DNA of 64,000 nucleotides from Mytilus edulis (lineage: Eukaryota): the NCBI RefSeq assembly GCF_963676685.1, contig NC_092353.1:8494001-8558000 (forward strand). Direction: 5' to 3'. The notes beneath the pieces were generated by a model that made no database searches, was not told the origin of the DNA, and saw only the letters and a program-made list of their open reading frames with translations. Within the stretch, counting starts at the first letter, position 1. Every line of letters starts with the position of its first letter. Shown here one piece after another: positions 5,651 through 49,500 of the stretch. The position numbers and the translations under genes were made by a program.

Positions 5651-6925
5651 TTCCGTTTCGCACTGAACATGTACCCCATCTCTTCATCCCTTTTACTTTT
5701 TATTATTTGGTAAAAACAACTTCACATATATATCATATAATATATTCATATAACAAAGGACACGTTTAAAACTATTGCCAAGCCTTATTCGGTCCAATAC
5801 ATTAAAACAAAATCGGAATTTTTATATTTCAAAACTTTAATCAAAATTAAAAAGAAACAACACTAATATTTGAAAACTTTTAAAAATTTTGAATTCATTA
5901 AGTTGTACACTGACCGAAATTCTTTATGACACGTTGTATGCAAAAATAAAAATAAAACTTCATAAATATATCATATCATATATTCATATAAAAAAGACAC
6001 GTTTAAAGCTCTTGACTTGCTTTATTTAGTCCTATTTAATAAAAAAAAAAAATACGACTATCACAATTTTAAGTTACGACCATCATCAACATATTTGTTG
6101 TTTTAATAATGACCATAAAAAAATGGATAGGAGGTCTCAGATGTTAAATTTGAACCAACCGCTTTATCAGAAAAATTACACTGGTTATATTGTAGTTTAA
6201 CACACACTTATTTTGATCATTGAGAAGCTTAATATTCCTTTAACAACACAACGTAATCAAAACGTTGAGCTGATTTTACAGAGTTATCTCCCTGTAGTGT
6301 TAGGTACCACCTTAAAGGTCTACGTGAAAAAATTTCATTTAAAAATCGCTAGACAAGTCATTCACGTACCTGATACATTAAGAAAAGGCAGGTAAACGTT
6401 AATCGGATAATGTCCAATCACATTTCAGACCAAGAAGGCATACTTGCTACAACCATTGATAATTTGACATTTATGTAAGAGGTCAAAACATACAGCATGC
6501 ATCTTGTAACGTCAGACATACATTTTGTAGTTTTGTTGCTTCTCTCTCGAAACGAAAGAATACAGATGTGTTGTCTCCAAATTCGACGTGTTGTTTGTTG
6601 TCAAGTTATTTTTAACTGATGAGTTTGAATATCCCATCTTTGAAATATTATTATAGTATTTTTTTTAAAAATGTAGTGAAAACAGTCAATGCAGATTCAG
6701 TCTTTTTGGAATGTGGGAATATAACGTGTAAGAACGGTGCCTCAGACGGTCTTATACAATGCCGGTGATAAACTGGTCATCAATTGTGCTGCACGTCTAA
6801 ATACATACTATGATCATCGTGTAAAACAAATCGTCTTACTTATCCATTTTGACGGGTCATGTAATGAATATTCAAAGAAAAGAATAACTGAGTGACTGGT
6901 CTCATGCAATGAATTTCAATTACAG

Positions 6926-9900
6926 ATGCTGTATGTACAGGTTTACCAGTGGAATTACAAGGCAGCACGTGGGAAGATTCTGTCACCAAGCAAACATTTA
7001 CTTTTGGAACCAAAACATTAAAAGGATTTTCGTTCTCATACATTGGGACAAGCTTTAAAGATTTCACCTGTACTGATAACACCGATAATGTATATGTCTT
7101 TGGGTAATGTATTGTTTGTTTTATTGTGAGTCTCATCAGCCTGACTCACTTACTCATATGAAATGCATTTTAAAAATCGTATAAGTAATCCAGTCTTATA
7201 ACATTGGATAACACATGACTTTCCATCTATAATACTTTTTTTATTAACCAACTAAGTACATTATTGCCAAAAATTATATATTTTCTGTAATGGCCCAGTT
7301 TTTCTGTAATGACCCTGTTTTTTCTGTAATGGCCCTGTTTTTCTGTAATGGCCCTGTATTAATGCCCGGTTTGTCTGTATAAAGCACAGTTAGGTTTTGT
7401 AATAAAGTTAATAAAATTAAATTGTAAAGAATATAATACTTTTTTGTATTTTATTTAATTTAGTAACCAGCAACCAACATTAAAGAACCATACATGTATA
7501 TAGGGATCACTGTTCATCCTGTTTTTCAACACATAACTTCTGTCAACTTAATATCTTTGATATTTGGTATATTAACACATATACTTTTATTCAGTTGGTT
7601 AATAAATGTATTAAAAAATGGGTGTTTTTATAATGGCTCTGTTATATGTCCTCGATCAGTAATAATGGCCTCGGATGTCTGTAATGGCCCTCGGCGTTGC
7701 CTCGGGCCATTACAGACTTTCTCGACCATTATTACAGACCTTGGACATATAACAGAGCCATTATAAAAACACCCATTCATTAATACTATAATATTGTATG
7801 CAGAATATGATGTTTTTTGTATTCCTTAGTGTTTTCATGTAAGTTAACATCTTTATTTTTGTACGTTAAACATCTGAGTTTTTTAGTAACAAATAGTCAG
7901 AATAATGCTGCAATTTATTCTGTTTGAAAAAAAACCTGTTAATAAACGTTGTGCTTCCACATGGATTTTCCTCTTATACCATTACATGTTACATTCATAA
8001 GGCTTATATCTAAATACCAAGAATATTAGAACCAAAACAAACTATGTGACGTTTTTTGCAACAGTTAACCGAGTTATATAACGGAATTACAAGTATCAAG
8101 TAAGTTTTAAGATTGCTGTATAGCCTAGCACTTTCATCCATCTTGTCGCGACTATAACGTTGTTTTGGGTTGAGAAGTTCTATATACATATTTATCGAAG
8201 AGTGCATTTGGAGTTCATCTTGGCACAAGATCCTCCAATAAACCTGTGTCAACAGTAACAACAGTGTTAACTCCACATACACACTGAGGGACAGTCAAAC
8301 TCCTAATTTGAAAATAAACTGACAACGCCATTGCATGAAAAAAAAGACAAAAAGACAAATGATGGTTAACAAGACACAATATAGAAAACTAGAAGGACTA
8401 AGCAACACGAACCTCACCAAAAAATGAAGGGGAGGTCTCAGATGCTCTGGAAGGGTATGTTCATGTTATTACAAACCCGGTAAATAGTATAATTCGGTAG
8501 GTCATATTCGTGAAAAGGGAACAGGATAGTAGTGAGGAACATATTGAATATCATCTGTGAAACGGATATTCAATAAATGTTACATGTTAATCAACTCATG
8601 ATAGCGTCCGTAAAATTTACAAAAGGATGATTCAACTTCACTATTTGGAACTTTTGATTGAATATAGCTTCCTTGTGAGCAACAACTTGCTATCAAGGAA
8701 ATCATGATTGGAAATACAAGCCCCGGAATATCGTATCAATTGGGAGATATATACTCGGTATGAAGGGGCTGCTGGAATGTTGCTTCATAGAAATGGAAAG
8801 TTCACAATTGAGAAGCTGAAATCTTTATTCGTAACGTTTGGTATGTAAATGACCCTCATTGTCAATTCCTAGATGTAAGTCAAGATATTAGGCATCTTGA
8901 CTGAGAACATCACGTATATAGCGGAAAGTACCTTTTTATGATATTGTTAACTTCTTCCAATCAAGTTCCTGTATAAAGCACCCTCAAAATAACAAAAGAA
9001 CAAGTCTGACAAGAAACGAGACACAATAGGTTCCAATCAGAATGCTGAAATTTTGTTGAAAACACGCCCCCAAAACGTAACAAATATGTTGTCAATCAAG
9101 AAATCAATCATCTTGATAATGTTAGTTTCAGCGAATTTTTTGTTTGAATCAGAGTGATTCTTTACAAAGTAGGATTTATTCATCCCTAAGGCAAGATACT
9201 TGTAGCTACATTGATAATGTATTTTATGACACAAATCAATTCCAAATCTTTCAATTTAGTCTATGAACTGGAAGATGAAAGAGTCTTAGATTGCATGTAC
9301 TCTAAAAGATCTTTAGAATTGTTAAGTCTTCACCTCTAATTCATGCCACCTCATGCCGCCTTTGAAACAACAATAACTGATAAAACAGATGTTAATAATT
9401 TCGAAAGAGGTTTCCTGGAGCACCTGGAAGACCCAGCACTATATCGTTGTTCGCAATTACACCTATGTAGTTCAAGAATCTAATACAGTTATTGAAGATC
9501 AATTAATTCATCTTTGATTGAAATTCCAAGAAGGACAGAGAACATACCTATGATTATCCAGGATTTACTATTTGGAAAGTGTCATACAAGCCAATTTTGC
9601 ATAGGTACTATTTCTGTACTTGAAATCTGTAGTACTGAAAATTTACCCTTTGATATTTAGTACTATTTTTTTACTTTAAAATTATTGTACTATGTACGTA
9701 CCTGTATTTTACAGTACTTGATTTGTAATTAAAATTTTGGTACTGAAATAATACCAAAAGCGATCACAATATTCCATGTTTTAAAATCATAATATTAAGA
9801 GATTTGAAGTAGACATACCATTAAAATGCTTAAAATGTAACGTTGTAACCAAAAATATATAGTACTTAAATTTTCAAATACAAATCAAGTACTGTAGATA

Positions 9901-12900
9901 CAGTTACCTTAATATTACAAAACCTTTAGAGTAACAAAATAGTACTGAGTATGAAAAGTAGATTTCCAGTACTACAGATTTTTGGTACAGACATAGTACC
10001 TATGCAAAATTGGCTGTGTACGGTATATATTGATGTTCCAAGTGAATTGTCAATACCTTATTCAAGACGACTATACTTGTAATTCTCAAATTAAAAAACA
10101 AAACTAATGTCGATAAGGTAATTAATTAATTGAAGGTTTGCGTTATAACAAAAACATAGGGAGAAATATTTAAAAAGTTGTCTGGCTCTAATACGCTTCA
10201 ATAAAAATGTTCCTAGTTTTTTTCTTCTTTAGAAGTGATAACAGCCATTCCTCACCAACCGGCTCAGCTGAGTACTTTTATCTGTGTATGAGGATTATCA
10301 AAGTTACTCACGATTTATTCTATTATTACTTATTAGCAGGTATGGTGAAATCTTAGTTAAATTATAATTCAAAAACCGCTTCTATAAATTAATGTGTACG
10401 CAAACAGATAAATATCGATTGATTGATCGATCTTTGGTGTTTAAACGCCACTTTTTGCACAGCATTTAGGCTATTTTGTTGCGGCCAGTTCTTATTGGTA
10501 GAGGAAGCCAGAGTGCCCGGAGATAACCACCGACCTTCGATAGGAAAACTGACAATCCTAGTCAATTAAGATTGGAGTCAGGTGCACCTCAATGAATATC
10601 GAAAAAGATACGCTAAACACAAAGAGAATATATATCACTTCAAATATAACGATTTAAATGATTAATGAGGTTCTTTTTGGTGTAAATGACAAATCAGTGG
10701 ATCAGAAAAATGTTTTTTTTTAATATGAACATATATAAAAAAGACGATGTGGTATGATTGCCAATGAGACAACTCTCCATAAGATACCGAATGACCCACA
10801 AATTAAAATTTATTGGTCAGCGTATGGCCTTCAAAAATGAGCAAAGCCACATAGTCAGTTATAAAAGACCCTGAAATCAGAAATGTAAAACGAGAAAACT
10901 AACGGCTTATCGTATGTACAAAAATATGAACGAAAAAAACAGCAATCAACGACAACCACTAAATATAGGCCCCTGTCTGGCTGGAACATACACACATAAT
11001 GTGGCGGGTGTTAAACATGTTAGCGAGATATCTACACTCCTCCTTACCAGCTTAGATAGTGGTATTACAGTACAACATAAGAACTACTATAAAAACCAGT
11101 TGAAAAAGGCTAAACTCATCAAATGGATACAAATAATAATACATATTAAACACGTAAATGTGATAGGGAACTTAAACATCCCAATACCAATACATGGTTA
11201 CTGACAGCTAGTTCAAAGCCAACAACAGCTTATATAAAATAATCATGCATCTTAGAATCAGTACACAATCGATCAACCGAAGAATTCAGCGTAAAAACGT
11301 CATAAACAGATAAACCATATGACCTTGTGAAATGCCGATACACAGTAAGTGCATGCATATTAGAACACTCAGTCTGGTAATTAAATAGAATTGACACTAT
11401 TATTAACAGAAACATAAAAAGTAATGGTTTAGTATGAACTTCAACGAAAAAGCTTATTTTTCGGCGAAAAAGAGAAACACGGTATCAAGTGCATTTACTT
11501 TTGAAGGCAAATCAGGTCTGAAAGTCAATTTCTGATGAGTATAATGATCGAAATCCTCCAAGGGATATCGATAAGTTGGGTTTTATATACGATTTAAAAA
11601 GCTATGTCCAAATCCCGAAATTCATTATTTCAAAATGATAACCCAAGTGAATATATAGTACACTTAAGAAAAACATTTACTAAGATAGATATTTCATATT
11701 TATCAGAACATGATTTTATCCCCACCACTTATTGACTATCGGGTTATGCATGTTAAAATTTAAAGAAAGCCATTCATCTAAGTTATCATACATTTCGGTT
11801 TCAGGGCTAACCGAATTCAAAGGGAAAGCTCGATTGTAAATGTTGATTTTCCTTGTTAATCTCGAGCAATAGTGACACAGTCATCATTACACACATATAA
11901 AAAAAAAATGTAAATTGGTTCACCCATCATATCGACCGGAAGTCCAAAAAAACAAATAACACAAAGAAAAAAGACTTAAGGTCAAGGAAAAGTAATAGGA
12001 TGTGTCACAGATTCTGGTATAATTTTACATAAAACTTTGGATCGCTGAAATATAATTGAAAATCGGAGAAAATAATGCCTTTATCTCTTTTTTGTCTGAT
12101 ATATAACACGATATTTTAAAGAAATGGACATGTCACAGAAGATTTATAGATAATTTAAGGATTTTAAAGAGAAAAGGCGGTATCTCTGCACACCCTGTAT
12201 ACCTTTTATGGTCAATGTGTGTTTCCAGGTACAAACAGTGGTACCATTCCGAATGTAAGAGCTATCTCGTCAACCGTAACGCAGACTGTCGCCAGCACCC
12301 TTTCAACTTGTCATTTCTGTGAAGATATAACTTCGGATGAATCTTTCCTTCAGAGATCGGATGGTATTTTAAATATTCAATATTAAAATGAAAAGATGTT
12401 CCAATTCTACGATACTTGATTGAAAATATTGATACTGTTTTATTAAAATTTGATCTAATAACATTTTCTGCTTAATCAACGTGTCAACATGTATAAATAA
12501 TTATTTTTCGATTTCAGATTTTTTTACAAATAATTGTTTATTTCATATTTAGTCTGAGCATCCATCTCTTTTGATTCGAAAATTTCTAGTGAATCTTATA
12601 TGTAGATGACATGCGCATTATATTTTGTTTTATAATTGAAATACAGTTAATGGCTCTGGGACACCAGTAACAGCAGATGCATTATGTTTACCGTGCACAA
12701 AGACACAGGCAGAGTGTGATCACTCAGGTAATTTACCTACCACCATAAACAATATTCTATTTGATGTACTCTAAAGGGCAAATAAACTCATCGTAGATAC
12801 CAGAATTGAAATTTTATATTTGTGCCAGTAGCGCGTTTCCTTTACAAAAGACTAATCAAAGTGATGCTCTAATAAAAAACAAAATAAAGGCCAAATAGTA

Positions 12901-15900
12901 TGATGCTTTTGACACACAAAAATATGCACGTAATGACTAAATTGGACCAAAACATCAATTTCTTGTATAAGCTTAGTATCAATGTTTTTTTTCTCATTTG
13001 AATTCGTTCACATTTGATTATTCATTTGTATGCCATATATAACTAATTTAATATTATGAGTTTTTACATTGCTTAAAGGAATGATGTGACCTGTTATCAG
13101 ATCTGTATTGGACTAATATATATTTCACTCTTTGAAAAGCTCTGTTCATTTGTATTAGCTTATTTACATTTCAATTAATACGTTGTACGTTTGCATTTTT
13201 GCATCATCGGCAAAGTTAAACTGAGAGGAACTTGACGATTCCTCTTAAATATGCCTTTACATTCAAAACAATCATCTTTACAACAAAGCATATGTATTTA
13301 ACAAGCCAAACAAGCATAAAGTATATGATTCCTCCCGTCATGCTTTAATTCAGTAGACTGAAAATATTTCAGATAGGTTGGATAATGTCATTTTATAAGA
13401 AATCTCTCAAAACACTTATGTCCTCATTGCAGTCTTTTTTTTATCAATTGTGTGTTATTTTAGTTAATTACGACTTAACTCTTACTATTTACAACTAATT
13501 CATTCTGAATAACATTTATTATGAACGACTAAAGCAACACATTTAAAAGCTAAGTATTCGTCAGTACCGAAATACATGAAGTATATGTACAAAAACATAA
13601 AAATCAAAGGTAAGTACAACTTTTGATTGATATTGCAAATCCTAGCCATACTATTTTTTTTTATATAATTACAGGGACCAGTATGGGGACATCTTCAAGT
13701 TCACCAAGTAAGACAAAAACACACAATTGTTTTATTTTTTTCTTCTTTGAAATCACCGAACCTCAATATATATAGTCACTGGGCTAATACCAGATTATAA
13801 TTCCAAAGACTCAGATATCACATTATAATGCAGTAAACAACTTTCGAGTTCGATGCATTTCCGTCAAAAACTCTGGTTTTAGTGAACGTCATTTGTGCGT
13901 TTAGGGGCGTCGTCACTTCCATTCTAATGTTGAACGAGTGGTTGGAAAACTATAATTCTATATTATACGAAGTTATTCGGCAAATTGTATTCTCAAAATT
14001 GACAATCAGCACTGCTGTCATTAGGGAATTGTCATTAAGTACCTACAGAACAACCATTATTTCTAGTTCACAACGACGATCACTTAGACGCTTGATGAAC
14101 GTTAATAGTGCAGGGATACAGCCGAGCCTTCTCTATCTGGTAAATGACGTCATAAAGGCGCGCATAAGAGTGTTTTTTCTGGTGATGAATGAACTCGAAA
14201 GTGGTCTATTCTTTTGTAAGGGAAATTTTCATTAGTCGGTGACAAATATTTTAAAGGGTTAGATTTTTCGTTCCACTAACCACGAAAGCCATCATTTCGA
14301 ATTTTTTATTGGTTTGCAATTTCTCAAAAGCAAACAAGATGGTCGCATTTTATGCATCAAAATCTTCTTTTTGTCAATTTTGACACAATTCCATAGTAAT
14401 ATTCATGTAATTGTTATAAAATACACCAAATGACAAAATTACAAACCTTATGTCGATTTTTATCCAATTCTTAGAAATATACCTGTGACGTCACTTTTTG
14501 TGGCGTTGATATAATAATTATTTGTTTGACACACAGTTCATAATTATTGTATGTTGTGTGTGTGTGTGTGTGTACTGTCCTAGATTAGGTATTCGTTGTT
14601 GTTCTGTTTAACACGTCGAAATGTACTATTATATTATCTATTTATTGCTCTGTCCGAAGTACTATTGTTCTTGCATTTATTAAACATTGTCATAAGCGCT
14701 TGGGTTGGCTAGCCATGAAACAGGTTCAACCAACCTTTTCTTCAATATCCTGTATCAAGTTAGGAATATGGCAGTTATCTTATAGTTCATTTATATATGT
14801 TGCATTGTCGTTTGTTTTTCGTTGCACTTCAGTGTTTCTGTTGTACCCCTCTTATAGTTGATGTGATTCCCCCGAGGTTTTGTAACTCGGATAGTTTCCT
14901 CTCAGACGTTTATGACTTTTGCATAGTAGTATACTACTGTTGTCTTTATTTGAAACCACGCAGTAGCGTAGGAAAATTATAAATACCTCTCGTTTTTATG
15001 TTAAACATCAAGAGTATACATATGACGTTTCATTGTTACAAATATTATTTACTTTGTTATGTGGAATTAGAATGGAGATAACTGTATTGTATTTTAAATA
15101 AATAAACTGAGTTCGCTTCGTACAACTTGATTTTTCTGTCGCAAATATCCGTTTACCTAACACGTTACGCGTCTCTAGGTACACTCAATTCGCGACAGTA
15201 AAATCTACGTTTTATGTAGGACACGCTTAAACACAATATGGTTGTCTTCAAATTTATCCGTAGTATCATGCATTATAAAGTATGATTACCTCATCGAATG
15301 ATCTTTAATAATCATTATCAACTGCCAATACAAATAGCTCTTTATTAACGTTTATGTATGGAACGTCAAAGCTGTCTTATTACGCTCATATTCATTATAT
15401 GGTATGCATTTACTTTTATATGATGTGCACTTGTAATAATATGATGTACAAATACTTTTATTTGATGTACAAATACTTTTATATGATGTGCATTTATTTT
15501 TATATGATATGGAAATAACATATATGATATGGAAATATCCTATATGTGAATTATTGTGTTGTATGACATGAAGTTATTCTGTAAACACACACACACATAC
15601 ACATAGTAGTACATAATGATTTACATATATATTACCAAATGCATTACATATATATCAGTACAACATTTATTACAAATATAGTAGAACATCATGAATTACA
15701 GCTCATTCAGCGGTCAACGACCAAGATAAACATATAGATTTATTTGTCAACTAAGACATGTTAGGGCGGGAGCCTCAGTATAATGAATATTGTGTTATTA
15801 AATGAAAATGTACCCGATCTGTTAAATTGCAGCTCTTTGTTTACAAAAATAGAAAACAGAATTGTACTTCCTTTTTGTTTTTTAAAAATTCCAGTTCTCG

Positions 15901-17120
15901 ATTCTATACTATAATGTAAAATCCTAAGTTATTGTAAATACTTTGTCATATTGTCGATATTGGAATGCATGATTCCTATTTCGTAAAGTAAATGCAAATG
16001 TTATTAAGCGAGGCCCAAATAACCTATTAACTGTCAATTATCTTGCAAGAACAAATCTTGTGTTTTCTATATTATTTTAGATTCAGATCATCGTCCAGTC
16101 TCTTATCAACGTCCGTTCCTAAAAAAGACGTCCGAATCTGACGTCCCGTTCTCAAATAAGTGTGCTTTATTTTAACCCTTTAAAAATCAACGTCGAATGT
16201 GACGTTATGAATCGCATAAACGCTGATTTGAAAGCTACAAAAAGACGCCGATTAGAGGCACATAAAATTAGCCGTCAATTCTGTTATTCATATGTTATTG
16301 TGCTGTCAGATTTGGACGTCGATTTGAGGAACGGTCGTCAATTATAGGCCAGACGTCGATCTAAGTCTTTTCGTTGATGTGTTTCCCTCGGTTTTAGTTT
16401 GTAACCCAGATTTGTTTTTGTCTGCTATCAAACAGCGGTATACTACTGTTGCCTTTCTTTACACACACATACATACATATATATATATATATATAATTAT
16501 GTATGCGATGTTTAAATACGCAGCCTCTGTTTTAATAATTTTATTGAGGCAATCGTTCTCGTAAACTCATATATATCACAATTGTCGTCACCGTTAAAGT
16601 TTTATAATTGTGCAAGTTCATATCGCACATTGTTATTTTTATTTGAAGCATATAGTTTCAGTCTCTGTTGTAATTACTGTGGATTCATTATTTTCGTTGG
16701 ATACCAATTTGTCGTGGATTTCGTCGGTACAGTTGAACCACGAATTTAAATGTTCAACGAATAACAAATTTGCAATACACTTGAATGCAGATATTAGCAA
16801 AACCACGAAATCGAATATCCACGAAAGTGTAAGTTTTCCTCAATCCAAGAAAATTGGTTCCCACGAAAATAAATGGATCCACAGTATGTCATGTTTAATA
16901 AATGTTTAGAATGATGCAAGCGTCTTAACTGATGTTTGGTTTAACTTTTTTATTGTATAAATTTCAAGATTGTGATAGTTTAATCAAAGTAGACTGATAT
17001 GATTCATTCAACATGACAATCATACTGATGAAGGATATCTGTTATCCGAAATATTTATAAATAATTACATTTATAGTTTCCTTTTTTTGTTATTGATGTT
17101 GTTTTGTACAGCTTTTAGGC

Positions 17121-17173
<53 letters not shown>

Positions 17174-20100
17174 TACGTCTGAGTCAGTGACAACCCTACA
17201 ACAGATGTATCCATCGGATCGCCATCAATGATGGTGATACATGGCTGTGTACATAATGTATATGCAACTCGTCTAAACATCAACCCAACAATGTTAGATC
17301 TGTAAATTTGCTTTCGCATGCACATTTACAGATNNNNNNNNNNNNNNNNNNNNNNNNNNNNNNNNNNNNNNNNNNNNNNNNNNNNNNNNNNNNNNNNNNN
17401 NNNNNNNNNNNNNNNNNNNNNNNNNNNNNNNNNNNNNNNNNNNNNNNNNNNNNNNNNNNNNNNNNNNNNNNNNNNNNNNNNNNNNNNNTATGTACACAGC
17501 CATGTATCACCATCATTGATGGCGATCCGATGGATACATCTGTTGTAGAGTTGTCACTGACTCAGACGTACTTATATATATATATATATATATATACAAC
17601 TAGTCTAAACATCAACCCAACAATGTTAGATCTGTAAATTTGCTTTCGCAAATTTTTGGTTCTTCCCTCGCCGGGATTCGAACCCATGCTACTGTGATAT
17701 CGTGACACCAAATCGCCTGCACTGCAGCCGTCCCGCTAGACCACACGACCACCTGGGCTCTCAATAAAGAGCTTTCGCTGGCCGTGTGTTACCTTTCCTC
17801 GTCAGTTTTAATCTAGCGGCGTACTACAGTACATGATATATAAGGCATGAAGATGTTATTGTTACAGATCAGCTAAATTATCTATAGTAAAGGATCCTAC
17901 AAATTATATATAATTTTTTGATATCACTGCAATATAAAGTGCATCTATCATTCGTTATTTAAATACAATTTCAAGATTAAAGGGAGAACATTTCATGAAG
18001 TAATATGTGTAAAGAAGCTCAAATAAGCTAAAAAAAAAGATAACTTTATAAAAAGTCAAAGTAAAAATTCAAATCACCTACTTTTACATTAATATCTTGC
18101 TCAATATATGTTTATTTTTTGTACTGTAAAAGTTGTCTTATTTCAGTGGACTGGTGGGAAATTTTATTGATAGTTTTAGCAGGCATAGCATTATCAATGA
18201 TAGTTGCCATAATAATTCGTCATGTATATACACACCACAAAGTTTCAAAAATAGGTAAGAACATAACTCTATATCTCTCCTTTAGACACTGAATATCTAA
18301 AAGGCGTTTCTACACCTATTGATATTTTGCTAAAAATCTGTTTCCGAACTTTTGATATGAAACCAAAATCAGGTTATGGTCCTTCCGTTTTGATTTAGGT
18401 CATAATGAAATATCCTTAATTTTCAGTCCGTCATTTTGCCATTCCGTCATTTCTTCATTCGCAAACAACAGTTTGAATTTACATCTGGTACCATCTGCTG
18501 ATTTATGTCGAAATTATGTTTTGGCATTTTTCCAATCGCCATCACATATTGAACTTATCTTAAGTATGATAGTCTACAATGATTAATGACAGACCGATTT
18601 TTCATTTGGCTCCGCTATGCTGGATTTTGTCAACATAATGAGCTTTGGACTCTGAAAATTTCAACTAATATAGATGGATTTATTTGTTTACGTGTTACAT
18701 ATTTGGTTTTCGGTCATTTTTTGTAAATAAATAAGGCAGTTTTTTCGTTTGGTTTGTTTTTCACTTGTCGTTTCGGGGCCTTTTATAGCTGACTATTGCT
18801 CAATGTTAGGGGCCGTATGGTGACCTATAATTGTGAATGTCTGTGTCATTTAGTCTCTTGTAGAGAGTTGTCTCATTGTCAATCATAACACATCTTCTTT
18901 TTTATATTCAAGCTTTTTTGCTAACGGGGCCATTCTGGGCATTCTTACATATCTATTTGTAAACGTGTGACGAAAATTTTTACGCAACCGTGTTTGACTT
19001 CAAACAGAAAAGGCTGACCAATATGCATACATAAAGGCAACAGTAGTATACCGCTGTTCAAAACTCATAAATCTATGAACGAAAAACAAAATCGGGGTAA
19101 CAAAATAAAACTGAGGGAAACGCATTAAATATTAGAGGAGAACAACAACACAACATTAAAATGTAAAACACACAGCAACGGACTAAGCATTAGACAAAAT
19201 CCGATGAGAATAACCAATATAACATCAAAACCAAACACATGAATTTGGGATAGAAATACACATGTAAATACGTCTAGGGTCCCCTAAGTAATGAATAAGC
19301 ATTTTATAAGAAAGCAAACATAAGTTATTCAATATTATCCGATGTTTTGAAAGCGCCAAAGTCAGCGTCACGCAATTCCAAAATATCTGCACAGACCGGG
19401 GATGCAAGAAATAAAACTTTGTTTGGTAGGGCTCGTTTGAAGATATTTAGTTTTCGTACTTATATGAGTCACACGACGGGTGGCACATGTAGAGCAAGAT
19501 CATTTTACTTTTCTGAAGCACCTGGCATCACCGCGTGTTGTTATCTGGGTTCTTTCGAATATGTTTAGAAAAAAACTTGAGTATAAATGTATTGATTTCT
19601 ATGAAATTACATCATAAGGATTTATATCATAAAAGGAAGGTTTGGACTTATTTATGGTGGTGAAACCGTGATTAATTTTGGATCAAAAAGCACAAAAACT
19701 CAATCCTTTCTCTGGTTTCCGAAGAATAAAATTGAGAAAGGAAATGGGGAATGTGTCAAAGCGACAACAACCCGACCATAGAGTAGACAACAGCCGAAGG
19801 CGGCCACCAATGAGTCTTCAATGCAGCGAGAAAATCCCGCACCCGGAGGCGTCCTTTAGCTGGCCCCTTAAAAAATATGTATACTAGAACAGTGATAATT
19901 GACGTCATACTAAACTCCGAATGATACACAAGAAACTAAAATAAAAATCATATATTGTACAAGACTAACAAAGGCCAGAGGCTCCTGACCTGGTACGGGC
20001 GCAAAATAGCTGCCGGGTTAAACATGTTTATGAGATCTCAACCCTCCCCTATATCTCTAGCCAATGTAGAAAAAAAAACCAAACGCATAACAATTCGAAC

Positions 20101-20843
20101 ATTAAAATTCAGTTCAAGAGAAGTCCGAGTCCGATGTCAGAAGATGTAACGCTAACATGGTTAAGTGGGGCTTGTTTGAAGATATTAAGTATGCAGACAA
20201 TAACTTAAGAATCAATGTATAATTGTGTATGTTATTGTTACACCATATATTTAAAACCACATAACGGAGGTTGAAGGTTGTTTATTCTTTAGTTTTTTAT
20301 GTTGTGTCATGTGTACTATTGTTTGTCAATTTGTCTTTTTCATTTTTAGCCATGGCGTTTTCAGTTTATTTTCGATTTATGAGTTTGACTTATTTCAAAC
20401 GGATTTAAATAATCTTCAAATATTTGTGTAATTCAATTTGATAAATCTTATAGTGTTTAGAATGTTTTATTTTGTTTTCAATTGAGTCCAAATAAGAGTG
20501 CAAAATTATACTTAGATTTATTTTGATTAGCTGTATCTAATAATGTATTTGGATGCTACTTTTGTTTGACCATTTTTCAAATCGGTTTACATCAGTATAA
20601 CAATCTATTTTGTGTTTGTTTTAAATTAACAAAAATGTAATGATGTGTCTATTAAAGCATGATTCCTCTATCATCCCTTTTCCAATGTTCCCTAAACTTC
20701 ATAAGATGTCAACCGCGATGCATGGCGAAATAAGTACATTGTATAGATGATAGTTAAACAAATATTTTCTCTCAATTTCCTTTGTTTGTGTATCTGATTA
20801 ACTCTTCCTTATTGTTTCTAACATTTCAGGGGTGCAGAAATGA
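6926..20843 (+). CDS. Uncharacterised Cys-rich single-pass (type I-like) membrane protein, 7 exons identified (~218 aa plus an unresolved leader)
   Basis: Phase-consistent exons: 6926-7103 (DAVCTGLPVELQGSTWEDSVTKQTFTF...FTCTDNTDNVYVFG), 10233-10339 (..YFYLCMRIIKVTHDLFYYYLLA), 12229-12363 (..TCHFCED..), 12647-12727 (..ALCLPCTKTQAECDHS), 13675-13707 (GTSMGTSSSSP), 18147-18254 (MDWWEILLIVLAGIALSMIVAIII TM + RHVYTHHK), 20830-20843 (GVQK*). All GT-AG, no internal stops. Confidence 0.8.
8284..10075 (-). mobile_element. Penelope-like retroelement RT fragment with 3' end, decayed
   Basis: ORF 9037..9234 IIKMIDFLIDNIFVTFWGRVF; degenerate PAYGVYISQLIRY region ~8720-8790; 3' sequence shared with 53700-54005. 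Confidence 0.7.
9587..10018. mobile_element. Palindromic MITE (~430 bp)
   Basis: AGCCAATTTTGCATAGGTACTAT ... ATAGTACCTATGCAAAATTGGCT; the arms stay complementary far inward; nested in the Penelope fragment. Confidence 0.8.
10738..11340 (+). repeat. Dispersed repeat family B (aagatgtggtatgattgccaatgagacaactctcca...)
   Basis: Partial copies at 795-826, 18700-18905, 24950-25028, 38800-39150, 40890-41140, 45155-45200, 50025-50168, 57180-57740, 63575-63668. Confidence 0.7.
15405..15546. repeat. ~21-22-bp degenerate tandem repeat (tttatatgatgt...)
   Basis: About 6-7 units with atatgatgt/atatgatat cores. Confidence 0.65.
16677..16884. mobile_element. Tc1/mariner-type MITE
   Basis: TA|CTGTGGATTCATTATTTTCGT ... 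ACGAAAATAAATGGATCCACAG|TA. Confidence 0.8.
17124..17171. repeat. (TA)n microsatellite
   Basis: About 24 TA units; a second tract at 17573-17596. Confidence 0.95.
17334..17488. other. Assembly gap (155 N)
   Basis: Run of n characters. Confidence 1.
17662..17760 (-). ncRNA. tRNA-derived (Pol III promoter) sequence within a repeat; not a canonical tRNA
   Basis: Minus strand GCCCAGGTGGTCGTGTGGTCTAG (A box) ... GGGTTCGAATCCC (B box, T-loop); spacing too long and acceptor stem poor for a functional tRNA. Confidence 0.65.
19727..20150 (+). repeat. Dispersed SINE-like repeat family A (aaaattgagaatggaaatgggg...)
   Basis: Further copies at 43820-44140 (minus), 37260-37520 (minus) and 45978-46050 (plus). 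Confidence 0.75.
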
Positions 20844-23797: not shown

Positions 23798-23989
23798 TAC
23801 TGGGGGCCGCAAAAAGTGAAAATTATCTTAAATTTCACATTAACTGTCCATATTTGTAAATAAATCAAATTAAAAAAGTATCTATCTCCATAAATGAACT
23901 ACATTTAATTAACTAAGTTATTGTTCACATAAATGAACAATTTGAATTAACTTTGAAAGTCCTTTGGAAAATTGCTAATCTTCTTCATC

Positions 23990-29311: not shown

Positions 29312-29329
29312 TGGTCACGGTACTATAAA

Positions 29330-29493
29330 TGTGGAGGTTAAAAGTATGATATTTTCGCTTATATAAACAAATACTTCTGTTCAGCCATCACTTTTAATAA
29401 CAATTCAAAGATCCCAAGGCGACGTCACTGTTGTCGCCAACGTCGCCAATGGTACAAAGTAAGGCACGTCGTTATCCAGCTATAATCTCGACA
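29330..29493 (-). repeat. 5' LTR of BEL/Pao element (164 bp)
   Basis: Direct repeat of 23629-23797 with about 14 substitutions and one 5-bp indel (hand count). Confidence 0.93.
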
Positions 29494-37500: not shown

Positions 37501-40500
37501 CCATTTCCACTCTCAATTTAATTAATGACACTAGAACAAGTTTAAACATACCTTTAAAATCAAATCTGTACTGTAAACCAGAAGACTACGAAAAGAATAA
37601 TAAAAAGATTACACAGTTTTAATGTACAACGACAGGCATGAATATATGTCGGATTGTTTACCCAGTACATTGGAACTCATTCACTGTAAATAAAAGATGG
37701 CAGATACAATCTATTGTTTTGAAAATCATGCATTTGTATATTTCACACAACTATGACTTAAAGAGGGGCGAAAGATCCAGATGCACCTGAAAATAATCTG
37801 ACAACGCCATGGCTAAAAATGAAACAGAAAAACAAACAAACAATAGTACTCAACCACAACAAAATAAAAAGTAAAGGCCAATCAACAGGAATCCCACCAA
37901 AACCTGGGACGATCTCAGGTGATCCGTAATGTTCAGCAGATCCTGATGTATTTGTGGCACCCGTCGTGTTGCTTATGTTAGTACAGACTCTGTAATAAGT
38001 ATAATTCTGTAGGTTAAATTCGTGAAAAGGAAACGGAATTGTAGTAACTACTCAATTTTTATATGTAGGTCAAGATATGATGAAGATTTTTAAGTGAGAA
38101 GACATCATCTTTATAGCGAAAAGTAAGGTTAAAGGATGCTGCTTACTTCTTTTGTTTCTTCTTAAGAAGTTCCTGTATGACTAACCTTCAGTAGGGTAAA
38201 ATACATACTATTAGCAAAATGTATTTGTACTAATTGTACATTGGTGAATGACTTTGCGTTTGTAGTTATCCTTGGCGTTCGATATCATTACTTGTCAGTT
38301 TTATTTGCAGAAATCATCATCATTGAAATATAAGACGCGTTGATAAATTCAATATTTTTTTTGCGTTTATGATTTTAGCGTCACTGATTAGTCCTTTATA
38401 GACAAAACGTGTGTCAGGCGTACACAATGTGGATCACGGTTAACTTAAATTTCAATTGTGATTCATATGATGACATTTTTAAGTTGTTTCTTAATCGTGC
38501 AGACATGTAAATTTTTCACAAACCTGTGTTTTACTGCTAGCTTTTAACATCGAGTTTGATCTGTATCTATGCACCGCTCTCCTGATTCCTTCGTGTAACT
38601 AAAATGCAATAAAACACTGAATGAATAAGTAAGATTATATGTCCTCTTTCAGTTTTTTCATGAATTATGAAACAAAGAAGGGTGTATGAACTATGTTGTC
38701 ATAAAAAAAAATGTACTACTTTTCAATAAACGATCAAACCTTAAAAGGAAAGGAGATATAACTGCAAGTACTTAAAGATATACGATCTTATATTGTACTG
38801 TTACACCAATATTTTAGGTTAGGAGGAGGGCTCAGTGCTCACAAACCTGTTTAACTCCGACACATTATTTGATTGCATGTACCAATCCATGAGTTAGTTC
38901 GGTGGCTTTGTTGGTTCATATCTTTTGAATTTGTTACCTAAATTGATTTGTTATAATCTAGGCCGTTAGTTTTCTCAATTTAACTGTTTAAAATTTTTCA
39001 TGTCGATTCTTTTTTAGCTGACAATACCGTATGATGTTTTCTCATTGTTGAAGGCCGTATGGTTGCCTTTAATTGTTTGAATTTACTCAATTCAGATTTT
39101 GATGGCTAGTTGTCTCATACGCAATCATACCACATCTCCTTTTTTTTTTTTATATTAACCCACCATTTTTCGGAAATACCTGCTTCAGGTGAGGAATATG
39201 GCATTTGTTTGGTTTAAAGTTTAACGGTTGCTTGATATAGTAGAATTTGTAAGTTGCTATTAAGTGTCCCTTTTCAAATTTGTTTTCAATTGTTTTGTCT
39301 CGAATTTAACTGAAGAGACATACGGTGTTGATATCGCATATGGCGCAGTTAATTCTTACTGGATGGTGTAGAATCAACAAGTCGTCAATATGAAACGTTT
39401 TCATTACATAATTCTTCTGAACTCACCTTTTTATTTGAAACTGCTTCTCTTATAAATATAATAAATCCCTGAAAATATATTAAAGCAACAAAAAGACTTA
39501 AAAACAGATAAGTCAAATTGATCAGATTGTATTGCCTATTGAAATGCAGATCGAGTACCAAAATAAACGGTACTCTTAATGTTTTTAAAATTACAAGCCA
39601 ACAAATTAAATAACCCTCAGAAACTGCAGCTATGCATGTCACCCTGCATACAGGAAGTCGCGTGTTAAAGAGTAATGACTCTTTTCCTAATTTCGTTTTT
39701 GAATTAGCAAGACGATTGTATATCAGATTTTTTTTTTTATATATTTTTAACGTTTTAGTCGTTTTTTCGCTGTGTTGATCCATATAAGTTTGAATATCAT
39801 TTTGGTATTATCTGCCTCCCTTTTAAGTTGAACCAAACTAGCTGCTGTGCTTTGAAAACGTTATTTCAAAATTCTGCGTTTATTACTTTTTAAAGTTAAT
39901 ATATATTATTTTTTATAAATCGTTAATTCGTAATTACTGCTTTTAAAGAGCAACTTAATATATAGTAATATAAATAATTATATATGAATATATACCTGGA
40001 GGGAAGTAGAAATACCAAATAAATACTGAAATATGATTGTATCTTCATTATATGCCAGAATTCCAAATAACCATGATAGTCCCAATACTGGTATTAATAC
40101 AGCCATACATTTAACACCCGCTCTATAAACAATAAATACATCTTTACCTATAGAACTACTATATATAGTAGTTGATCTTTGATGACGCACTTATCAAGTC
40201 ACACACTAAGTCTCGGTCCCATTAGAGTTCACGCGATGCCATCAGTTTTTACGTCCAACGTCAAGATGTATTATGGCATAAAAATGTCCACCCGTGCATT
40301 TTGTCGCCTGTCTTTCCATTCGTCCGTTAAAACGATAGCCCTGATACGCATGTAATGTTACAACGACATTAGGATTGACTTGAGAACGCTTTCTTTTGTT
40401 GTCACATCGTACTTTAAAATGGCATGTACTAGCTAAATTGAGCTTAGATAACTGTTTTTGTAAACTGAACACTTTTGTTGGTATTGGTGCATGTAGAATA

Positions 40501-43500
40501 TCTTTTGATTTTTAAAATTCTCGGCTCGACTCTTTATAGAACTTTTAACAGACATAGCTGACACAACATGCATATGGCTGAATAGGAACATTCTCGTGCA
40601 TATTTTTCAAAAAGATATTCGAATTAAATACTTGCTCAATAGCCAATTTAATTATTGCAACAGGTACTCTTGGTGCAGCTGTTATTTTTTTTTATCTTGA
40701 TTTGTCTCTTCGAAATCACATTTTTACACAATGTTACACTAACACTAATCAATGATTAAGGAACTTCGATTACCTTCATTTTAGTTTTGCAACATTTCAA
40801 TATTTTATCATCAAATACAATAATTAAAAAAAATAAAAATAAAAACAGGATAGAACAAGGCTGTGCAAACCATAGATATTTCTGATGTTTAGTAGTAGTC
40901 GTTTGTTGATGTGGTTCATAAGTGTTTCTCGTGTCTCAGTTTTTATATAGATTAGATCGTTGATTTTCCTGTTTGAATGGTTCTACACTAGTCATTGTTT
41001 GGGGCCATTTACAGCTTACTGTTCGGTGTGAGCCAATGCTCCGTGTTAAATACATTACTTTGACCTATAGTGGCTTTGTTTCTCAAATTGTGACTCCGAT
41101 GCAGAGTTGTCTCATTGCCAAGAATACAACATCTTCTTATATCTGCACAAAGGAAAATATCTATCATGCTATAATTAGACTTATTTACTTGAAACAGACT
41201 TAGCCTACACTAAATACAAACCTGACTTTTTTCTTTAATCTTTCGTTCATCATAGCATTTGTAGAATAGATAGCTTTTAATACAACATGTATTATTCCTA
41301 TATTAATCTACAATCAGGGAATATATATCAACAAAATTATGATAGATGATAATTTGTTGATTACTAGCAAGTCATTCTTTCAAAGAAAAATGGCCTTGGG
41401 ACGAAATAATTATGTCAAACACAAAATATTACAGATGTTTCTATCTAGAGATACCAAGCGCACTTTTAAAATTCAGCAGCCTATACAAATAGGAAATACA
41501 ATGAGCAAGCGGAAAAAGCAAAACAAGGCAAAAAATACCAAGTCGACATGAAAACGTTAAGATACAGAGGACGGGATTGTAGTTACGATATGAGAGAAAA
41601 AAAAGCCGTGAATTACAAAAAAACAGTTTTTGTTTGCGTCTTTTGTCAATTTTACGATCATCTTCAACTAAATAGTTTTCCCCTTTTAGTCTTTGTTCAA
41701 TTTAAATGTTTCAAGAACTATGCACAATTTCAAATCCAGGGCCTTTCCCTTTGGCACTCCACGGTACTTTACCAAAAAAGCACCGTGGCACTCTAAGGGT
41801 TAAATAAAGAAATAGTTGGCATTAGTCTAGTTTTATCCTATCCAGTACTATAGAAAGCCAAGGTTGACAATGATTTTTCGAGGGGTACCAATCGCTCTGT
41901 CACCCTCTCAGCTAGGTATTATTTCATTTATAAATTGATTAAAGCATCAGTGGTATATGTCTATGTTTATGACTCAGAAATTCGTTACTGCAACGAAATG
42001 TAAAATTGATTTCCTACAATTTTTTAAATTCAAGGGTTTATTTGATTCGACCCGTAAACATTTGCAAATGGATGTGAGGTACTATGATTTTGATGGAATT
42101 GTACATTATAACTGACCAACTGTTATAAATGTTGGGGGTTTGAATAGCTATGAACTATGTTTAGCCCACTGTTTGCTATTGAAAAAGCCTGTACCGATTC
42201 AGGAACAGACTACTGTTTTACAGAATCTGTAAATAAACTTACCAGTATAATAAGTAAAGCAGGTCCAACAAAGGCCATAAATACAAAATTATTTGTGCTA
42301 AGCCAGCAACTGTAAACATATAATACAAAAATCAAATAGAGACACTTTAAGACTCTTTGAAAAAAAAACCAATTTAATTGTGTTCACTTGAAAAGGAATT
42401 GTAAATGTATGTTCATTTCTGTAGATATATTTTTCGAAACTGTACACGGAGTAATAGGAAGTAGAGTACATATGTACGTCAGAAATAAATTATCAAACAA
42501 AACAAACACAACTGTATTTGTTTTTTGTTTTTTTTCGTAAGTGTGTGTGTGTGTGTAGTTCCTTTCGATTTTCATTTAAAATCAAACATTTATCTGAGTT
42601 GATTTAAAATATTATATATCTCATATTATTTGTGTGTATTGTAATCGTATTTAGGTGTAATACCACCGACTCATGGAACGTCACATCCGGTTGAATACGA
42701 AAATAGGTCGAAAAAATATTCCCTTGAAATTTACAGTTGTAGGTAATTAATCCTACATTGTATTGTAGTAAAACATTTCTGTTTTTATAAAAATATGTCT
42801 TGGGTATTTCAATGCACCATTATTTTTTTTATTTGAGGTTTCTATAGAATATTTTGTAAACTTATGGTTACATGTTTACTTAAGCTTGTACACTGGTTAT
42901 ATAAGGGAAGTATTTGATTGGTTAACTTCCAGTGTTGAGATAACTGAATTTTTTTTCATTTCTAAAAGCAGAATTTGACCAGTGTAAATATATAGCTTAA
43001 AATTAATCTTAAATTGACGATTCAATTCTAATCAAGTCAAACACATGTTTTAACTATATTGCTGATTCATGTGATCAACATTAAATCAAAACATATAAAT
43101 TCTAAATCCTGGTTAACTAAACAACAAAGAAACATGATGTAAACACGACTATATCAAACCATTGAATAACAAACGATTTTTATTGTTTGAAGTTAAAGTT
43201 TGTAAAACACAGGCTGTTAAATAGATCAACTATAAAACACTTTTCATTTTTTATTCTTATTCATACTAATTTATACATACTATTTTTCGGAATGATATCC
43301 TTTAAGGCGCGTTACTCCGAGAGTTATTCCTACAATCACCAACGGAACGCCTGAAGAAAACAAAATGTGTTACTGCCTACTGTATTATTTGTATGCATAT
43401 GATATTTTTCTTTAAATCAATTCTTTACATACATGGATAGAAATAGTTGAATCGAACCTATATTGTTTTAAAGTGGGGATAACATTGATTTGATCAAACT

Positions 43501-46500
43501 TTGAATATATCAAATACACAATTAATCAGAATTCATATATTGACTCGCATCTACAAATTGGCTATGGAGTCGCTGCAGCTTTACGACAAAAAGGGGGATT
43601 TTAACTTTCCAATTTCTTACTTTCAATTTTGACGAAGCAACCTTCAAATTGCTGCATATATGCAGTTCATCTTTCCTAGTTTTAGTCGTCTTTTAATTCT
43701 TACATTTTTTTTCTCGGTCTTACTTTGGTTTATTAAGAAAGATTGCCCATTCAGTATATTGGTTTTTTTTTAAATCATTTATGTTAATTACCAATATTAT
43801 AATTTATAGTTTCGGCTTCCTTTTACTTTTCTACATTGGTTAGAGGTATAGGGGGAGGGGGGAGATCTCACAAACATGTTTAACCCCGCCAAAGTCAGGA
43901 GCCTCTGGCCTTTGTTGGTCTTGTATTATTTTAATTTTAGTTTCTTGTGTACAATTTGGAAATTAGTATGGCGTTCATTATCACTGGACTAGTATATATT
44001 TGTTTAGGGGCCAGCTGAAGGACGCCTCCGGGTGCGGGAATTTCTCGCTACATTGAAGACCTGTTGGTTGCTGTGGTTTTTTATTTGGTCGGGTTGTTGT
44101 CTCTTTGACACATTCCCCATTTCCATTCTCAATTTTATTCCTTTATTTTTTACATTTGGTAAACTTTTAAATGGAACATAGTGTCTTTTTACAACAATCA
44201 CCTTTTAAATTAATTATGTACTAGTCAGCTATTTTTTATACAACAAGTAAGCAAAAATGTCAAAAAAGTATATTCTTACCCCAAGCAAATGGTAAATAAA
44301 AGCGTACTTCAGATTTTCTCTTGAAAACAACGGTCACAGATCTAGCTACTGATATTCCTTCACATAACATGAGAAAGAATACAACCAAAAACACGTAATG
44401 TAGAACAGCTGTTACTATAATACAAGCAATCTGAAACAGATATGAAAAATTTATCTGTGAACGTTAACTTAAAAATTTAAAATACAATAATTTTGCTGTT
44501 CTAAGGCAGTATTTATAAGGCAGTTCTTAATGGGAGTTTGATATGATCTTTGTTAACGTATTTTACTGTTTCTCGGCATGCCTGTCCATTGCAGGACACG
44601 ATACTCTGTTTCAATTACTAGGCCTGTTTACGGATATTGTGTTATTGAAATTTTCTGTTACAAAACTTAAAAAAATAATTAAAATATAGGAATGTATGTC
44701 CCTCATGCAAAGCTCTGATTCCTGGCCTTGCTATGGCTATACTTTATTGACCTTTTTTTTTTTTTAAAGCTCTTCATCTTTTCAATAAGCTTTGAATTTG
44801 CAAATATGTTGGTCTCACTGAAGAGAAATTGATTATCGAAATGCGTATCTGGAGCTGTTAACATTGGAACCGATTACTAGTATGTAATTACCCTATAAGC
44901 TAATATGACTGATATTGGAACATGTGGAATATATGAACTACATGTTACCATATTTATCATTATAATTGTAACAATACTCACATCATTGTCTGTGACGGTT
45001 GTAGAACTTAAGAACACAGAATATCCAATGATCAATACAACACACATATTCGATAAAATAACAGTCCATTCATTTTTAACATACCTAAAATAGTGCGTAC
45101 ATATTCAACTATCACAACTATAAAGTATAATCAAAGAAAATACATGTATAAAAAATAAGATGTTGTTTGATTGCCAATGAGACAAATCTCCACAAGAGAC
45201 GCATACATTTAGACGGAACATTAAATTCTATCGAAAAAATCAAATGTCTGCATCATTTTATCGACTACTACACAATGTATATAATAGATAAAATAGGTAA
45301 AAACTAAGAATCCTTGACAGATGATTATAATGTAATTTTACCAAATTGTATTATCATATATAACATGTATAAACGTATTCTTGTTTTTCATGCACATTAA
45401 TTGTTATGTTAACGTTGTATATAACGAGTTTCATGTATTTGCCTTACGGAGTTAAAAATCAGTTTAGATGGATTAATTTGGTCAAACCATACTGCAACTC
45501 CGGAACCAAATTATTGGAGCACTCATAATGCAGATTAATCCACACCAGAGTTTCGGACGCACCGATTTCATAGAGTGTTATTTCTATTTGAAAGGATATC
45601 AATGTTCTATGAAGTATGTGACAAATTAACATTTTTCAATTGTAGTATAGCAAGGAATCTTTTTAGAAGACCTTTTGCTTCACTTTTAAGATTTCTGAAA
45701 TGGTGTTGTATTACTGTCTAGTTAGTTAATGTCCGTTTTTTTTCTTTTCTTAAACTGCTTTTTTTTTTATTTGTGCACACATTTGTCTGAATAAAAATTC
45801 CTTTCTATTGTGTATTCTGATACAATACGCGTGTATTATTCTGTCTTTTTAATATCTCACCTCCAGAATATGTAGTAAGTAATAAGGGTAAGAGTACACC
45901 CTAATATTGATAGTCCACATCCAATAAACGTGATAATTTCTAAGGCTATCTGGTGTAGGTCTGTCTAAAATGTACATAAAATTGAGAATGGAAATGGGGA
46001 ATATATCAAAGAGACAACAACCCGACCATAAAGCAGACAACAGCCGAAGCCCATGTAATTAGGCTTCGGAAAGGATGTTGCATTGCTCTCTAGTTTTTTT
46101 CTTCTTTTATCGTAAACACAATTTGTTCTGTGCAGACATTTATCTGCATAACAATTCCTTTCTACAGTGTATTCTGACAAAATACACGTGTATTATTCTG
46201 TCTTTTTAAAATCTTACCTCCAGAATACCTCCGAATAATATGTTTCTTATTTATTGAATGAAAATATCTATGTTTTCTTTAAAGTGCATACAATGTTTTG
46301 AGAATAAAATAATATATTAAACATTGCTTAAAACCAAATAATGACACAGGTATATTAGGATTTTGAAAGCAACACTTCGCGTTTTAACTTATCCATGGTA
46401 TAAATGATACCAGGGTTGCGTTCAATATCGTAGCAGCTACATATATTTGTGCTTCTAAACGAGTAGCTAGTCTAGCTGCTATCAATATATATGTAGCAGA

Positions 46501-49500
46501 TGGGCTAGCTACAGTTCAATAGTTATAAATCTACGTAGCACTATGTAGCCGATACGATGTTGAACGCAACCCTGGTTGATAATTAAGTCCGCAAAATTCG
46601 AGTTTTATCAACAAAGGACACTGGTGTTAGAATCAATACAGCTGAAAGGCGAAAACCCCAAAACGAGGTGCAAGAGCAAAAGTTCACAAAGAACATGCTA
46701 CACCTGCCTACCAGATACCGTACTTGAAAATCAAAAGTTTCCTTCGTTCTGGTTTCCTAAACAGAAATTTCAAACAAACCTAATAAATATATTTTTTTGT
46801 AGATCTAAAAAATCGCTTTGGATGCAGGAAATGTATAAGTGTTTTTTTATTAGAATAATATAAGAAATTCTTAGTCGTCAACAGGTTTTTTCATGAACAC
46901 ACAAGTTTGTGTATGCGCATGTAATGTAAATAAAACTTACAACTTCAAAATCGCTAGGACTCATCAATATAGCAAAATTTGTTAAATGATTGCATGTGCA
47001 TGTAGAAACAGTATATTCAGTCTTTTTGAGATAACATCCACTATTAGCCCAACTTCTAGCGCTGAAATAATAGCCACATTTAAATCGAGACATAATGAAA
47101 GTTCAGATCATTATTTAAAAAATCTTGAAAAGGTTAAATTATTTTATTTATTTTTCAATCTTCATAAAGATTTCAAGATCAAAATTAAATTAAGTTAAAA
47201 TAATTTTCAAACAGAAACATGAATATCCGGGTCATTTGAGATCGACAACGCGATACAGTTCAACCAGATAAAATTATTACTCAGATACCGTTTACATCAT
47301 TTTATAATTTAAAAGACAGGAATAATTACAAAATTGTCATGTTAGATTGAAATAAAAAGTACAATATCATACATATAGCGTTGTCTTAAAGAATTACAGA
47401 TCTGAAAATCAGTTTAATGCATAGACTTAAAAGGTATAATACGAGATATCCAGGTACATCTTTAGACAGGAGCTGATATAATGGTAACGATAATAACGGT
47501 TGGACAATGGCAATACAGTACATTATCTTACCTCCTATACATTTCTAGGAATACGATTGGTTAAAAGCGTCCTCATGGAAACCGTGTATATTTAATATTA
47601 GGTTAGTTGGGAGGCGGGGCTTATTTCATACACGGTAAGTAGTGGAGTTACGTCCCTTTATATTCCATATAAGGTAATAAGGAGGCCGGGCTTATTTCAT
47701 AAACGGTTAGTAGTGGTGTTACGTCCCTTAAGAAAAACAAAACAGTACTGAGAAAAAATCTTAAGGGTTTCGACAGACGAAGAAAGTGATGATAAAGTGA
47801 AATAAATTCATAAAACACATTTAAATCTAACAAGTTGTCATTGTTGGCATCTGTTTTTTTAGGATCAAAGGAAGTAGTTTCTAAATGATGTTAATGCTAA
47901 CTGTATTGAAGACTTGCTCATTTTGATAGGTTACTAGTCTAAATTAAGATAGTCGGTAAGATAAATTCGTTACATAGTGTGCTAGTGATGTAATACGGTA
48001 TATATGGGGTCAGTAAATTCCATATGGGGATTCGAGCTTCGCTCTCACCCTATATGGAATTTACTGACCCCATATATACCGTATTAGGTCACTAGCACAC
48101 TATGTAACTAATATTACACCAGCTATTATTTTGACTAAAACATATACCTGAAGTTCCAATATCCACATGATATCTTGGGATCTGTGAATGGCACCTGTAG
48201 TTCGGGAAAATAATATGATGTAAATAACAATAAAATTCATGATAAAACTGGCAATAACATAAGGATAGAATATAGTAGACGATATCGACAAACTCACATT
48301 TGACTTTAACTTTTTTTTTCATTGGATGTATTTTATTTCTTAGAAATATTCATCGGATACCAAAAAAAAATATAATCCATTTACACGATACAAGTCAAGG
48401 TAAACACAACTAAAACTTCACGAATCGCAAAATTTTTCAACAGAAATATACCAGGTACGTCGACAAACCAGTGTTTTGTTCTTTGTAAAACATTGCATAA
48501 ATTTAATGTATTGGAAAAGTTATATCAGCTATACGCTTTCCTAACACGTGAACATTGATAAAATCTATTTTAATTAAACCGTGCTATTGACATTGGACGT
48601 TAACCTTTAACAGTTGGGACTAATGTGTTATGCCTTTGTTTTGTAAATGTATTGCATTTCTTTTTAAAGATTTGTCTTTCTAGAAATCAGGTCTCGGTTG
48701 TACAATATAATGAGGGTATATATGGAAACACGTATCGTTCTTACAAAAAAGAAGTTATACGTTTATGTTTTTAAATATTATCCTTTCAAATTACTATATG
48801 ATATACAATATGTGTGTAATGATTTATTTCAATCACTTAACTCTTTAAACGTGAAAATTATTGTTCACTTAGATATATGCAATACTACTAAAAATAAGTC
48901 AGTGTACAATTTACCTTTTTATTTTGTTCAAATCTGATTGTAATATTTTCTGTTAAGATGTGAATAGCTTGGCCAAAAGATACGGAAATCACGTCAGAAC
49001 CAACTGATCTGAAACAAACATGTTTGCCTTGATTTCTTAAGTTAAGACATGTTTTTTTGTAACCTCACCGGTTCAGACAAACTAAAGAAACAAACATATT
49101 CTGTCTTGCAATTGTATAAATATGCATAGGAATAAACAGTCAATAACCCAACGTCCTTTTAAATAGTAATGAGTTTTGATAATTAGCGATTTGTTCATAA
49201 ACTTAAGAAAACACGATGGAAACAATTGTAAACGTTTTCTTCCTTTTTGGTTTATAAATCAATAAATTTTAAAATATTTTTTCCTCGAGCATCACTCAAA
49301 AGCCATTAATAGTAGAAATGCAAATATGGCGCAGAAATATTGGTACCGTTTTTGTTTTTAAACCTTTTTTTTCTATTAAACACAGCTTACAATAGATCTT
49401 TAAGCGAAAAAGCAAACAGAAATTCTAAACAAACAAAAGACTCCAAACTGATGTGCAAAAAAGAAGCCTACCTATATTCGAGTTGATCCGAATCGCTCAG

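Follow-up and report, generated by a model that had tools for sequence, protein, structure and literature searches.

In the account of PMC10193966, APCDD1 is a single-pass protein whose ectodomain is a lipocalin-like barrel. The shuffling of N-terminal head domains is, as set out in PMC12716839, a described rule of the adhesion G protein-coupled receptors (GPCRs). A conserved Trp in the first strand of an eight-stranded barrel and an Arg or Lys in the last are features of the outlier lipocalins of the calycin superfamily, and DUF7043 (PF23070) and DUF7044 (PF23071) are domains usually paired with DUF7042 (PF23069). Here we describe a gene in a stretch of 64,000 nucleotides of Mytilus edulis DNA (contig NC_092353.1, positions 8,494,001 to 8,558,000; hereafter the window) that compares with each of these systems. 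Its product, which we call the window protein, is predicted to consist of a single barrel, a three-Cys tail, a short linker and one transmembrane (TM) helix. APCDD1 has two barrels, whereas the model of the window protein has one. It also differs from DUF7043 and DUF7044 proteins in its three-Cys tail and linker, and in that no DUF7042 was found behind its barrel (Pfam scan, E ≤ 5).

Gene structure, isoforms and expression

The sequence-only reading of the window proposed seven in-frame GT-AG exons with intron phases 2, 1, 1, 1, 1 and 1, encoding 8 Cys, and all of this was confirmed at the same positions. Each of the seven has the expected AG acceptor and GT donor, except that the last ends at the stop codon; after splicing, a single frame stays open as far as the stop, and the other two contain 16 and 11 stops. 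The joined product is identical at 217 of 217 residues to the C-terminal part of XP_071137652.1, an uncharacterised M. edulis protein of 239 amino acids, which bears out both the splicing of the gene and an uncharacterised, single-pass product. When the first window exon was used as query, four Mytilus proteins were matched. The acceptor at 6926 is in phase 1, and the missing first exon lies about 10.9 kb upstream of the window start, across an intron of 17.8 kb (G000:C10:8483105-8483168, plus strand; 64 nt, 21 residues and one base); it is predicted to encode a signal peptide. This exon brings the number of coding exons to eight, and the database record shows that the gene is already annotated. 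Thus the proposed seven-exon structure was correct in its exons but incomplete, and the gene was hidden only in that it is missing from the list of open reading frames of 80 amino acids, solely because its exons are short. It is annotated as uncharacterised in both M. edulis (XP_071137652.1/53.1/54.1) and M. galloprovincialis (LOC143048575), in records that assign it neither a domain nor a fold nor a function. The M. edulis record was likely built on the same assembly and is therefore not independent genomic evidence. The M. galloprovincialis RefSeq model XP_076078436.1 (P0002) has a C147F change at an otherwise invariant Cys.

All window exons are on the plus strand. Exon 2 (6926..7103; residues 22-81) encodes Cys25, the strand with the conserved Trp37, the first half of the predicted barrel and Cys70; exon 3 (10233..10339; residues 81-117) a long hairpin, the invariant Cys99 and a YYYLL strand; and exon 4 (12229..12363; residues 117-162) the conserved Arg127, a variable loop, Cys144, Cys147 and the last barrel strand with Arg159. 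Exon 5 (12647..12727; residues 162-189) carries one N-glycosylation sequon (N163) and the tail with Cys175, Cys178 and Cys185, followed by a Ser/Thr linker in exon 6 (13675..13707; residues 189-200). The TM helix and most of the 16-residue His/Lys tail are encoded by exon 7 (18147..18254; residues 200-236), a cassette exon, and the last residues and stop by exon 8 (20830..20843), common to both the membrane and the secreted form. The stalk comprises 11 residues, and no signalling motif was recognised in the tail.

RNA contigs were examined from four runs of four studies, chosen among 14 runs guessed to be RNA. The junction 12363>12647 was present in contigs of all four runs and 12727>13675 in those of three. 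Loose contig ends, a part of which was listed, were matched by eye to the window sequence; among those listed, the join 10339>12229 was found in two runs and the join 13707>20830, which skips the TM exon, in one. The contigs lie over exons and not introns, with zero depth in the intron bins 12404-12592 and 12908-13663. The gene is expressed. Junctions 7103>10233, 13707>18147 and 18254>20830 were absent from the contig rows listed for the four runs and are supported by database models, so that the check on splicing yielded four joins but not inclusion of the TM exon. Raw reads, about 6-18% of each run, were dominated by intronic repeats; no junction of the gene was among the rows listed, and depth was near zero in the bin holding exon 4.

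The databases hold the same three isoforms in both Mytilus species, two of them shortened to 203 amino acids (TM exon skipped) and 194 amino acids (isoform X3, exon 4 skipped). The RNA join of linker exon to last exon is that of the TM-less 203-residue isoform. The isoform without residues 117-161 would lose the last strand and two Cys, and may be noise. One contig from run X5, of depth 26, carries a divergent copy of exon 4 (window 12229-12727). This copy differs at 16 positions, which cluster in the variable loop, and the end of exon 5 stands ahead of it. The likely source is a paralogue or another allele in which exons 4 and 5 are duplicated in tandem. Of the 11 changed codons 9 are non-synonymous, near the neutral expectation, and positive selection is not claimed.

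Predicted fold and family relationships

The structure model of the ectodomain is one eight-stranded antiparallel meander barrel, and we predict a lipocalin-like barrel locked by disulfides 25-70, 99-147, 144-178 and 175-185, the pairs being derived from conservation and co-loss and not from coordinates. In outlier lipocalins the Trp belongs to a Gly-x-Trp motif (SCR1), and the Arg of SCR3 is stacked on it. Trp37 is kept in all 25 aligned sequences and Arg/Lys159 in 22; the Gly is not fixed. The window protein has in common with the outlier lipocalins the Trp of the first strand, the Arg/Lys of the last and the predicted barrel, Tp0751 being the closest of them by structure among the matches listed. 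It differs from them in its membrane anchor and in an insert of about 40 residues, tied by a disulfide, that precedes the last strand, and identity is about 10%. Searching the PDB by sequence gave no match at E ≤ 0.001 and one at E 0.15, and Foldseek gave none at E ≤ 0.001 against either the PDB or viral models. When two domains were modelled together, the second half was of poor quality (mean predicted local distance difference test score 62). APCDD1 was not among the best 50 structural matches. Mussel APCDD1 is a separate gene on C5, where both genome matches to APCDDC (PF14921) lie; this domain gave no match in the window protein.

Pfam scans of each exon and of the whole protein returned no family, only chance matches to the TM segment; none of four orthologue proteins matched DUF7043 or DUF7044 at E ≤ 5, and the locus is not among the 14 DUF7043 matches in the genome. 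A full scan with the window protein gave 55 relatives at E ≤ 0.001. Those looked up by name (20 of 53 new matches) are all from molluscs: Mytilus, three oysters, a scallop, a freshwater mussel and a periwinkle. One of the 53 homologues, P0016 (E 2.4e-32 to the window protein), scores above the DUF7043 cut-off of 27 bits across the aligned domain (37.9 bits, from two stretches), and three more match below it; P0070 and P0071 pass the cut-offs of both DUF7043 and DUF7044, and P0093 (E 8.6e-110 to the family profile) that of DUF7044. The window protein can thus be placed next to DUF7043/DUF7044 by transitive homology. Independently, the top Atlas match was a mollusc DUF7043/DUF7042 cluster (score 0.91); a homologue as query gave 0.84, which is a lead only. 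In a weak test against a single sequence, the profile gave a probability of 0.9% with one of two DUF7043-DUF7042 genes on C6; these two genes (G000:C6:62910965-62913034 and 76465541-76467622) are single frames of about 690 codons, apparently intronless. One further profile comparison was set aside as not independent, its two alignments sharing four sequences.

The barrel is the outermost module in 51 of the 53 homologues, on stalks that vary widely in kind and length. DUF7042 follows the barrel in seven, over cut-off, and Sushi, EGF and collagen domains occur in eight, five and three. Since homologues carry DUF7042 behind the barrel, and barrel and DUF7042 alternate in an oyster protein, the window protein is a stand-alone form of the first module of a barrel-DUF7042 pair, with the three-Cys tail replacing the partner.

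One barrel exon gave 32 matches in the genome at E ≤ 1 (23 at E ≤ 0.001), which are not gene counts; 17 of the 32 fall within C8:54.8-55.5 Mb. C5 and C9 carry the closest paralogues, whose database proteins share 46-60% identity over the domain. Two tandem paralogues at G000:C9:70285440-70322638 lack a TM helix and end in His/Arg-rich tails. The sequence-only reading was right in seeing an invertebrate-expanded cell-surface family, plausibly of receptors or ligands. That no named family applied held for direct Pfam matches, but DUF7043/DUF7044 are reached through homologues and a lipocalin-like fold is predicted. Overall, its observation is confirmed and its interpretation partly supported. 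A full-text literature search found the DUF names, their Pfam numbers and six accessions in no paper, and the listings gave nothing on the family; the search covered no supplementary tables, in which expression or proteome data might include these genes.

Adhesion GPCRs in the barrel cluster and beside the gene

Two 7TM (seven-transmembrane) genes lie inside the C8 barrel cluster (G000:C8:55217408-55265126 and 55292126-55323338; L025-L036), on the same strand as the barrel cassettes, whose intron phases are identical to those of the window gene. A further barrel cassette stands ahead of each. The first locus chains 24 AG/GT exons to 878 codons with no stop, beginning with a signal-peptide exon, four barrel exons and a short mucin exon and continuing with HRM, GAIN-region, GPS and 7TM exons. 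The second chains 22 exons to 801 codons, its last barrel exon ending 806 bp before an in-phase HRM acceptor. Exon ends were picked by hand from comparison of the two copies, with three boundaries corrected, and the final exon is unmapped. HRM (38.7 and 40.6 bits), GPS (25.4 in both) and 7tm_2 (up to 32.8) are all over cut-off; the one GAIN-region exon scanned gave no GAIN match. Both GPS motifs keep the His-x-Thr site and lack two of the four Cys usual in the consensus. Between barrel and HRM no TM exon of the single-pass type was found, and a scan for signal exons gave a single weak candidate in the second gap and nothing in the first.

From this gene structure we predict that barrel and receptor are probably fused at both loci. 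Against fusion, extracellular modules in general are joined in phase 1, no fusion protein is among the 53 homologues, none emerged from a search of long proteins (7996 candidates scored; known long homologues were missed by it), and metagenome contigs, with one distant locus, gave no support. The other 23 of 25 HRM matches in the genome do not coincide with the barrel matches listed, and fusion would therefore be local and recent. The C8 loci fit the adhesion GPCR pattern of an HRM-GAIN-7TM core with shuffled N-terminal domains; the window gene is not itself a GPCR. In its listings, the literature search found no report of the barrel as a GPCR head.

The C8 link is better supported than one suggested earlier, the tail-to-tail arrangement of the window gene with an adhesion GPCR. 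A minus-strand adhesion GPCR with mucin stalk, HRM, GPS and 7TM was indeed found as a separate gene (39996..63124 mapped, ends unmapped), its nearest mapped exon (TM6/7) at about 39996-40118, but the arrangement is not conserved. No 7TM exon match was found in either of the two 100-kb regions (C5 and C9) around the four closest paralogues, for which synteny as a family rule is rejected, and the remaining units of the C10 receptor array, three in number, gave no barrel match within the part examined. The adjacency is likely chance. The array comprises four tandem copies (G000:C10:8429648, 8538308, 8605400 and 8664260) with TM3 exons 85-100% identical; upstream of the first copy there are MAM and mucin exons (L013). 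The Ser/Thr mucin exon of the receptor in the window (59501-63124, minus strand) has 1207 codons and includes about 37 copies of a 60-nt unit. A fragmented Pao/BEL-type retroelement (about 23900-29400, minus strand; Peptidase_A17 and integrase zinc finger) at least partly separates the two genes.

Intron 1 contains pieces of a DDE_Tnp_4 transposase (L009:7434-9123, plus strand) and a convergent Myb/SANT frame (window 1742-2383, minus strand), the pair typical of Harbinger elements, which marks a Harbinger-like element. A multi-exon rhodopsin-type GPCR lies upstream of the gene (L011:1670-1990 and 6126-6524, plus strand). In a repeat region at about 17236-17900 of the window, read depth in three stranded libraries reaches about 860 and is strongly strand-biased, the reads likely coming from other repeat copies.

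Proposed function and significance

We give about an even chance to the proposal that the gene makes a small exported lipocalin-like barrel serving, tethered or soluble, as a head that binds an extracellular macromolecule. The membrane form would hold the barrel on the cell surface by its single helix; its 16-residue tail probably does not signal, and it would act as a tether or co-receptor. The soluble form, released when splicing skips the membrane exon, would be a decoy or ligand. Recognition heads are usually displayed as the outermost module on stalks varying in kind and length, and we favour this reading because the barrel is outermost in 51 of 53 homologues on very different stalks. The partner would be a protein or matrix component bound on the barrel surface, not a lipid inside.

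The main rival, a membrane-anchored binder of lipids or small molecules on the pattern of APCDD1 or of classical lipocalins, whose secreted form would be a carrier, deserves consideration but seems rather unlikely: the mussel's own APCDD1 exon has no detectable sequence link to the window protein (probability 0.07%, a weak test of a profile against one sequence), and in the model the barrel is compact, with an insert that may cap it. Improbable to us is a structural, mucus or coating component cross-linked or metal-bound through His-rich tails, with no specific ligand. The His-rich tails of the two C9 paralogues without a TM helix and the mucin or collagen stalks of many homologues would suit such a role, but the His residues of the window protein are in its predicted cytoplasmic tail and absent from the secreted form. 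Just as little weight falls on a protease or complement-type inhibitor, the barrel docking on an enzyme in the manner of potempin E and OmCI, since the structural scores are tied with many unrelated barrels and no inhibitor motif was identified.

By itself, the window gene is one more annotated, unstudied mussel protein. The annotated gene and the named domain family were known; to these are added a newly predicted fold, RNA support for the secreted isoform and a testable receptor lead. The gene is of use because, with its one domain, it offers a minimal way into an invertebrate domain family on which the full-text search found no paper, and its built-in soluble isoform should make the protein easy to express and test. 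More tentatively, the barrel may be an unrecognised exon-shuffled recognition module of molluscs, the calycin counterpart of Ig or lectin heads, used alone (tethered or secreted), on mucin, Sushi, EGF or collagen stalks, and, at the two C8 loci, as the tip with which a new kind of adhesion GPCR binds its ligand. If so, DUF7043/DUF7044-type domains would gain their first functional context. Should the C8 models prove right, the head domains of adhesion GPCRs would come to include a lipocalin-like barrel, and the ligand of the family could be found through a receptor read-out.
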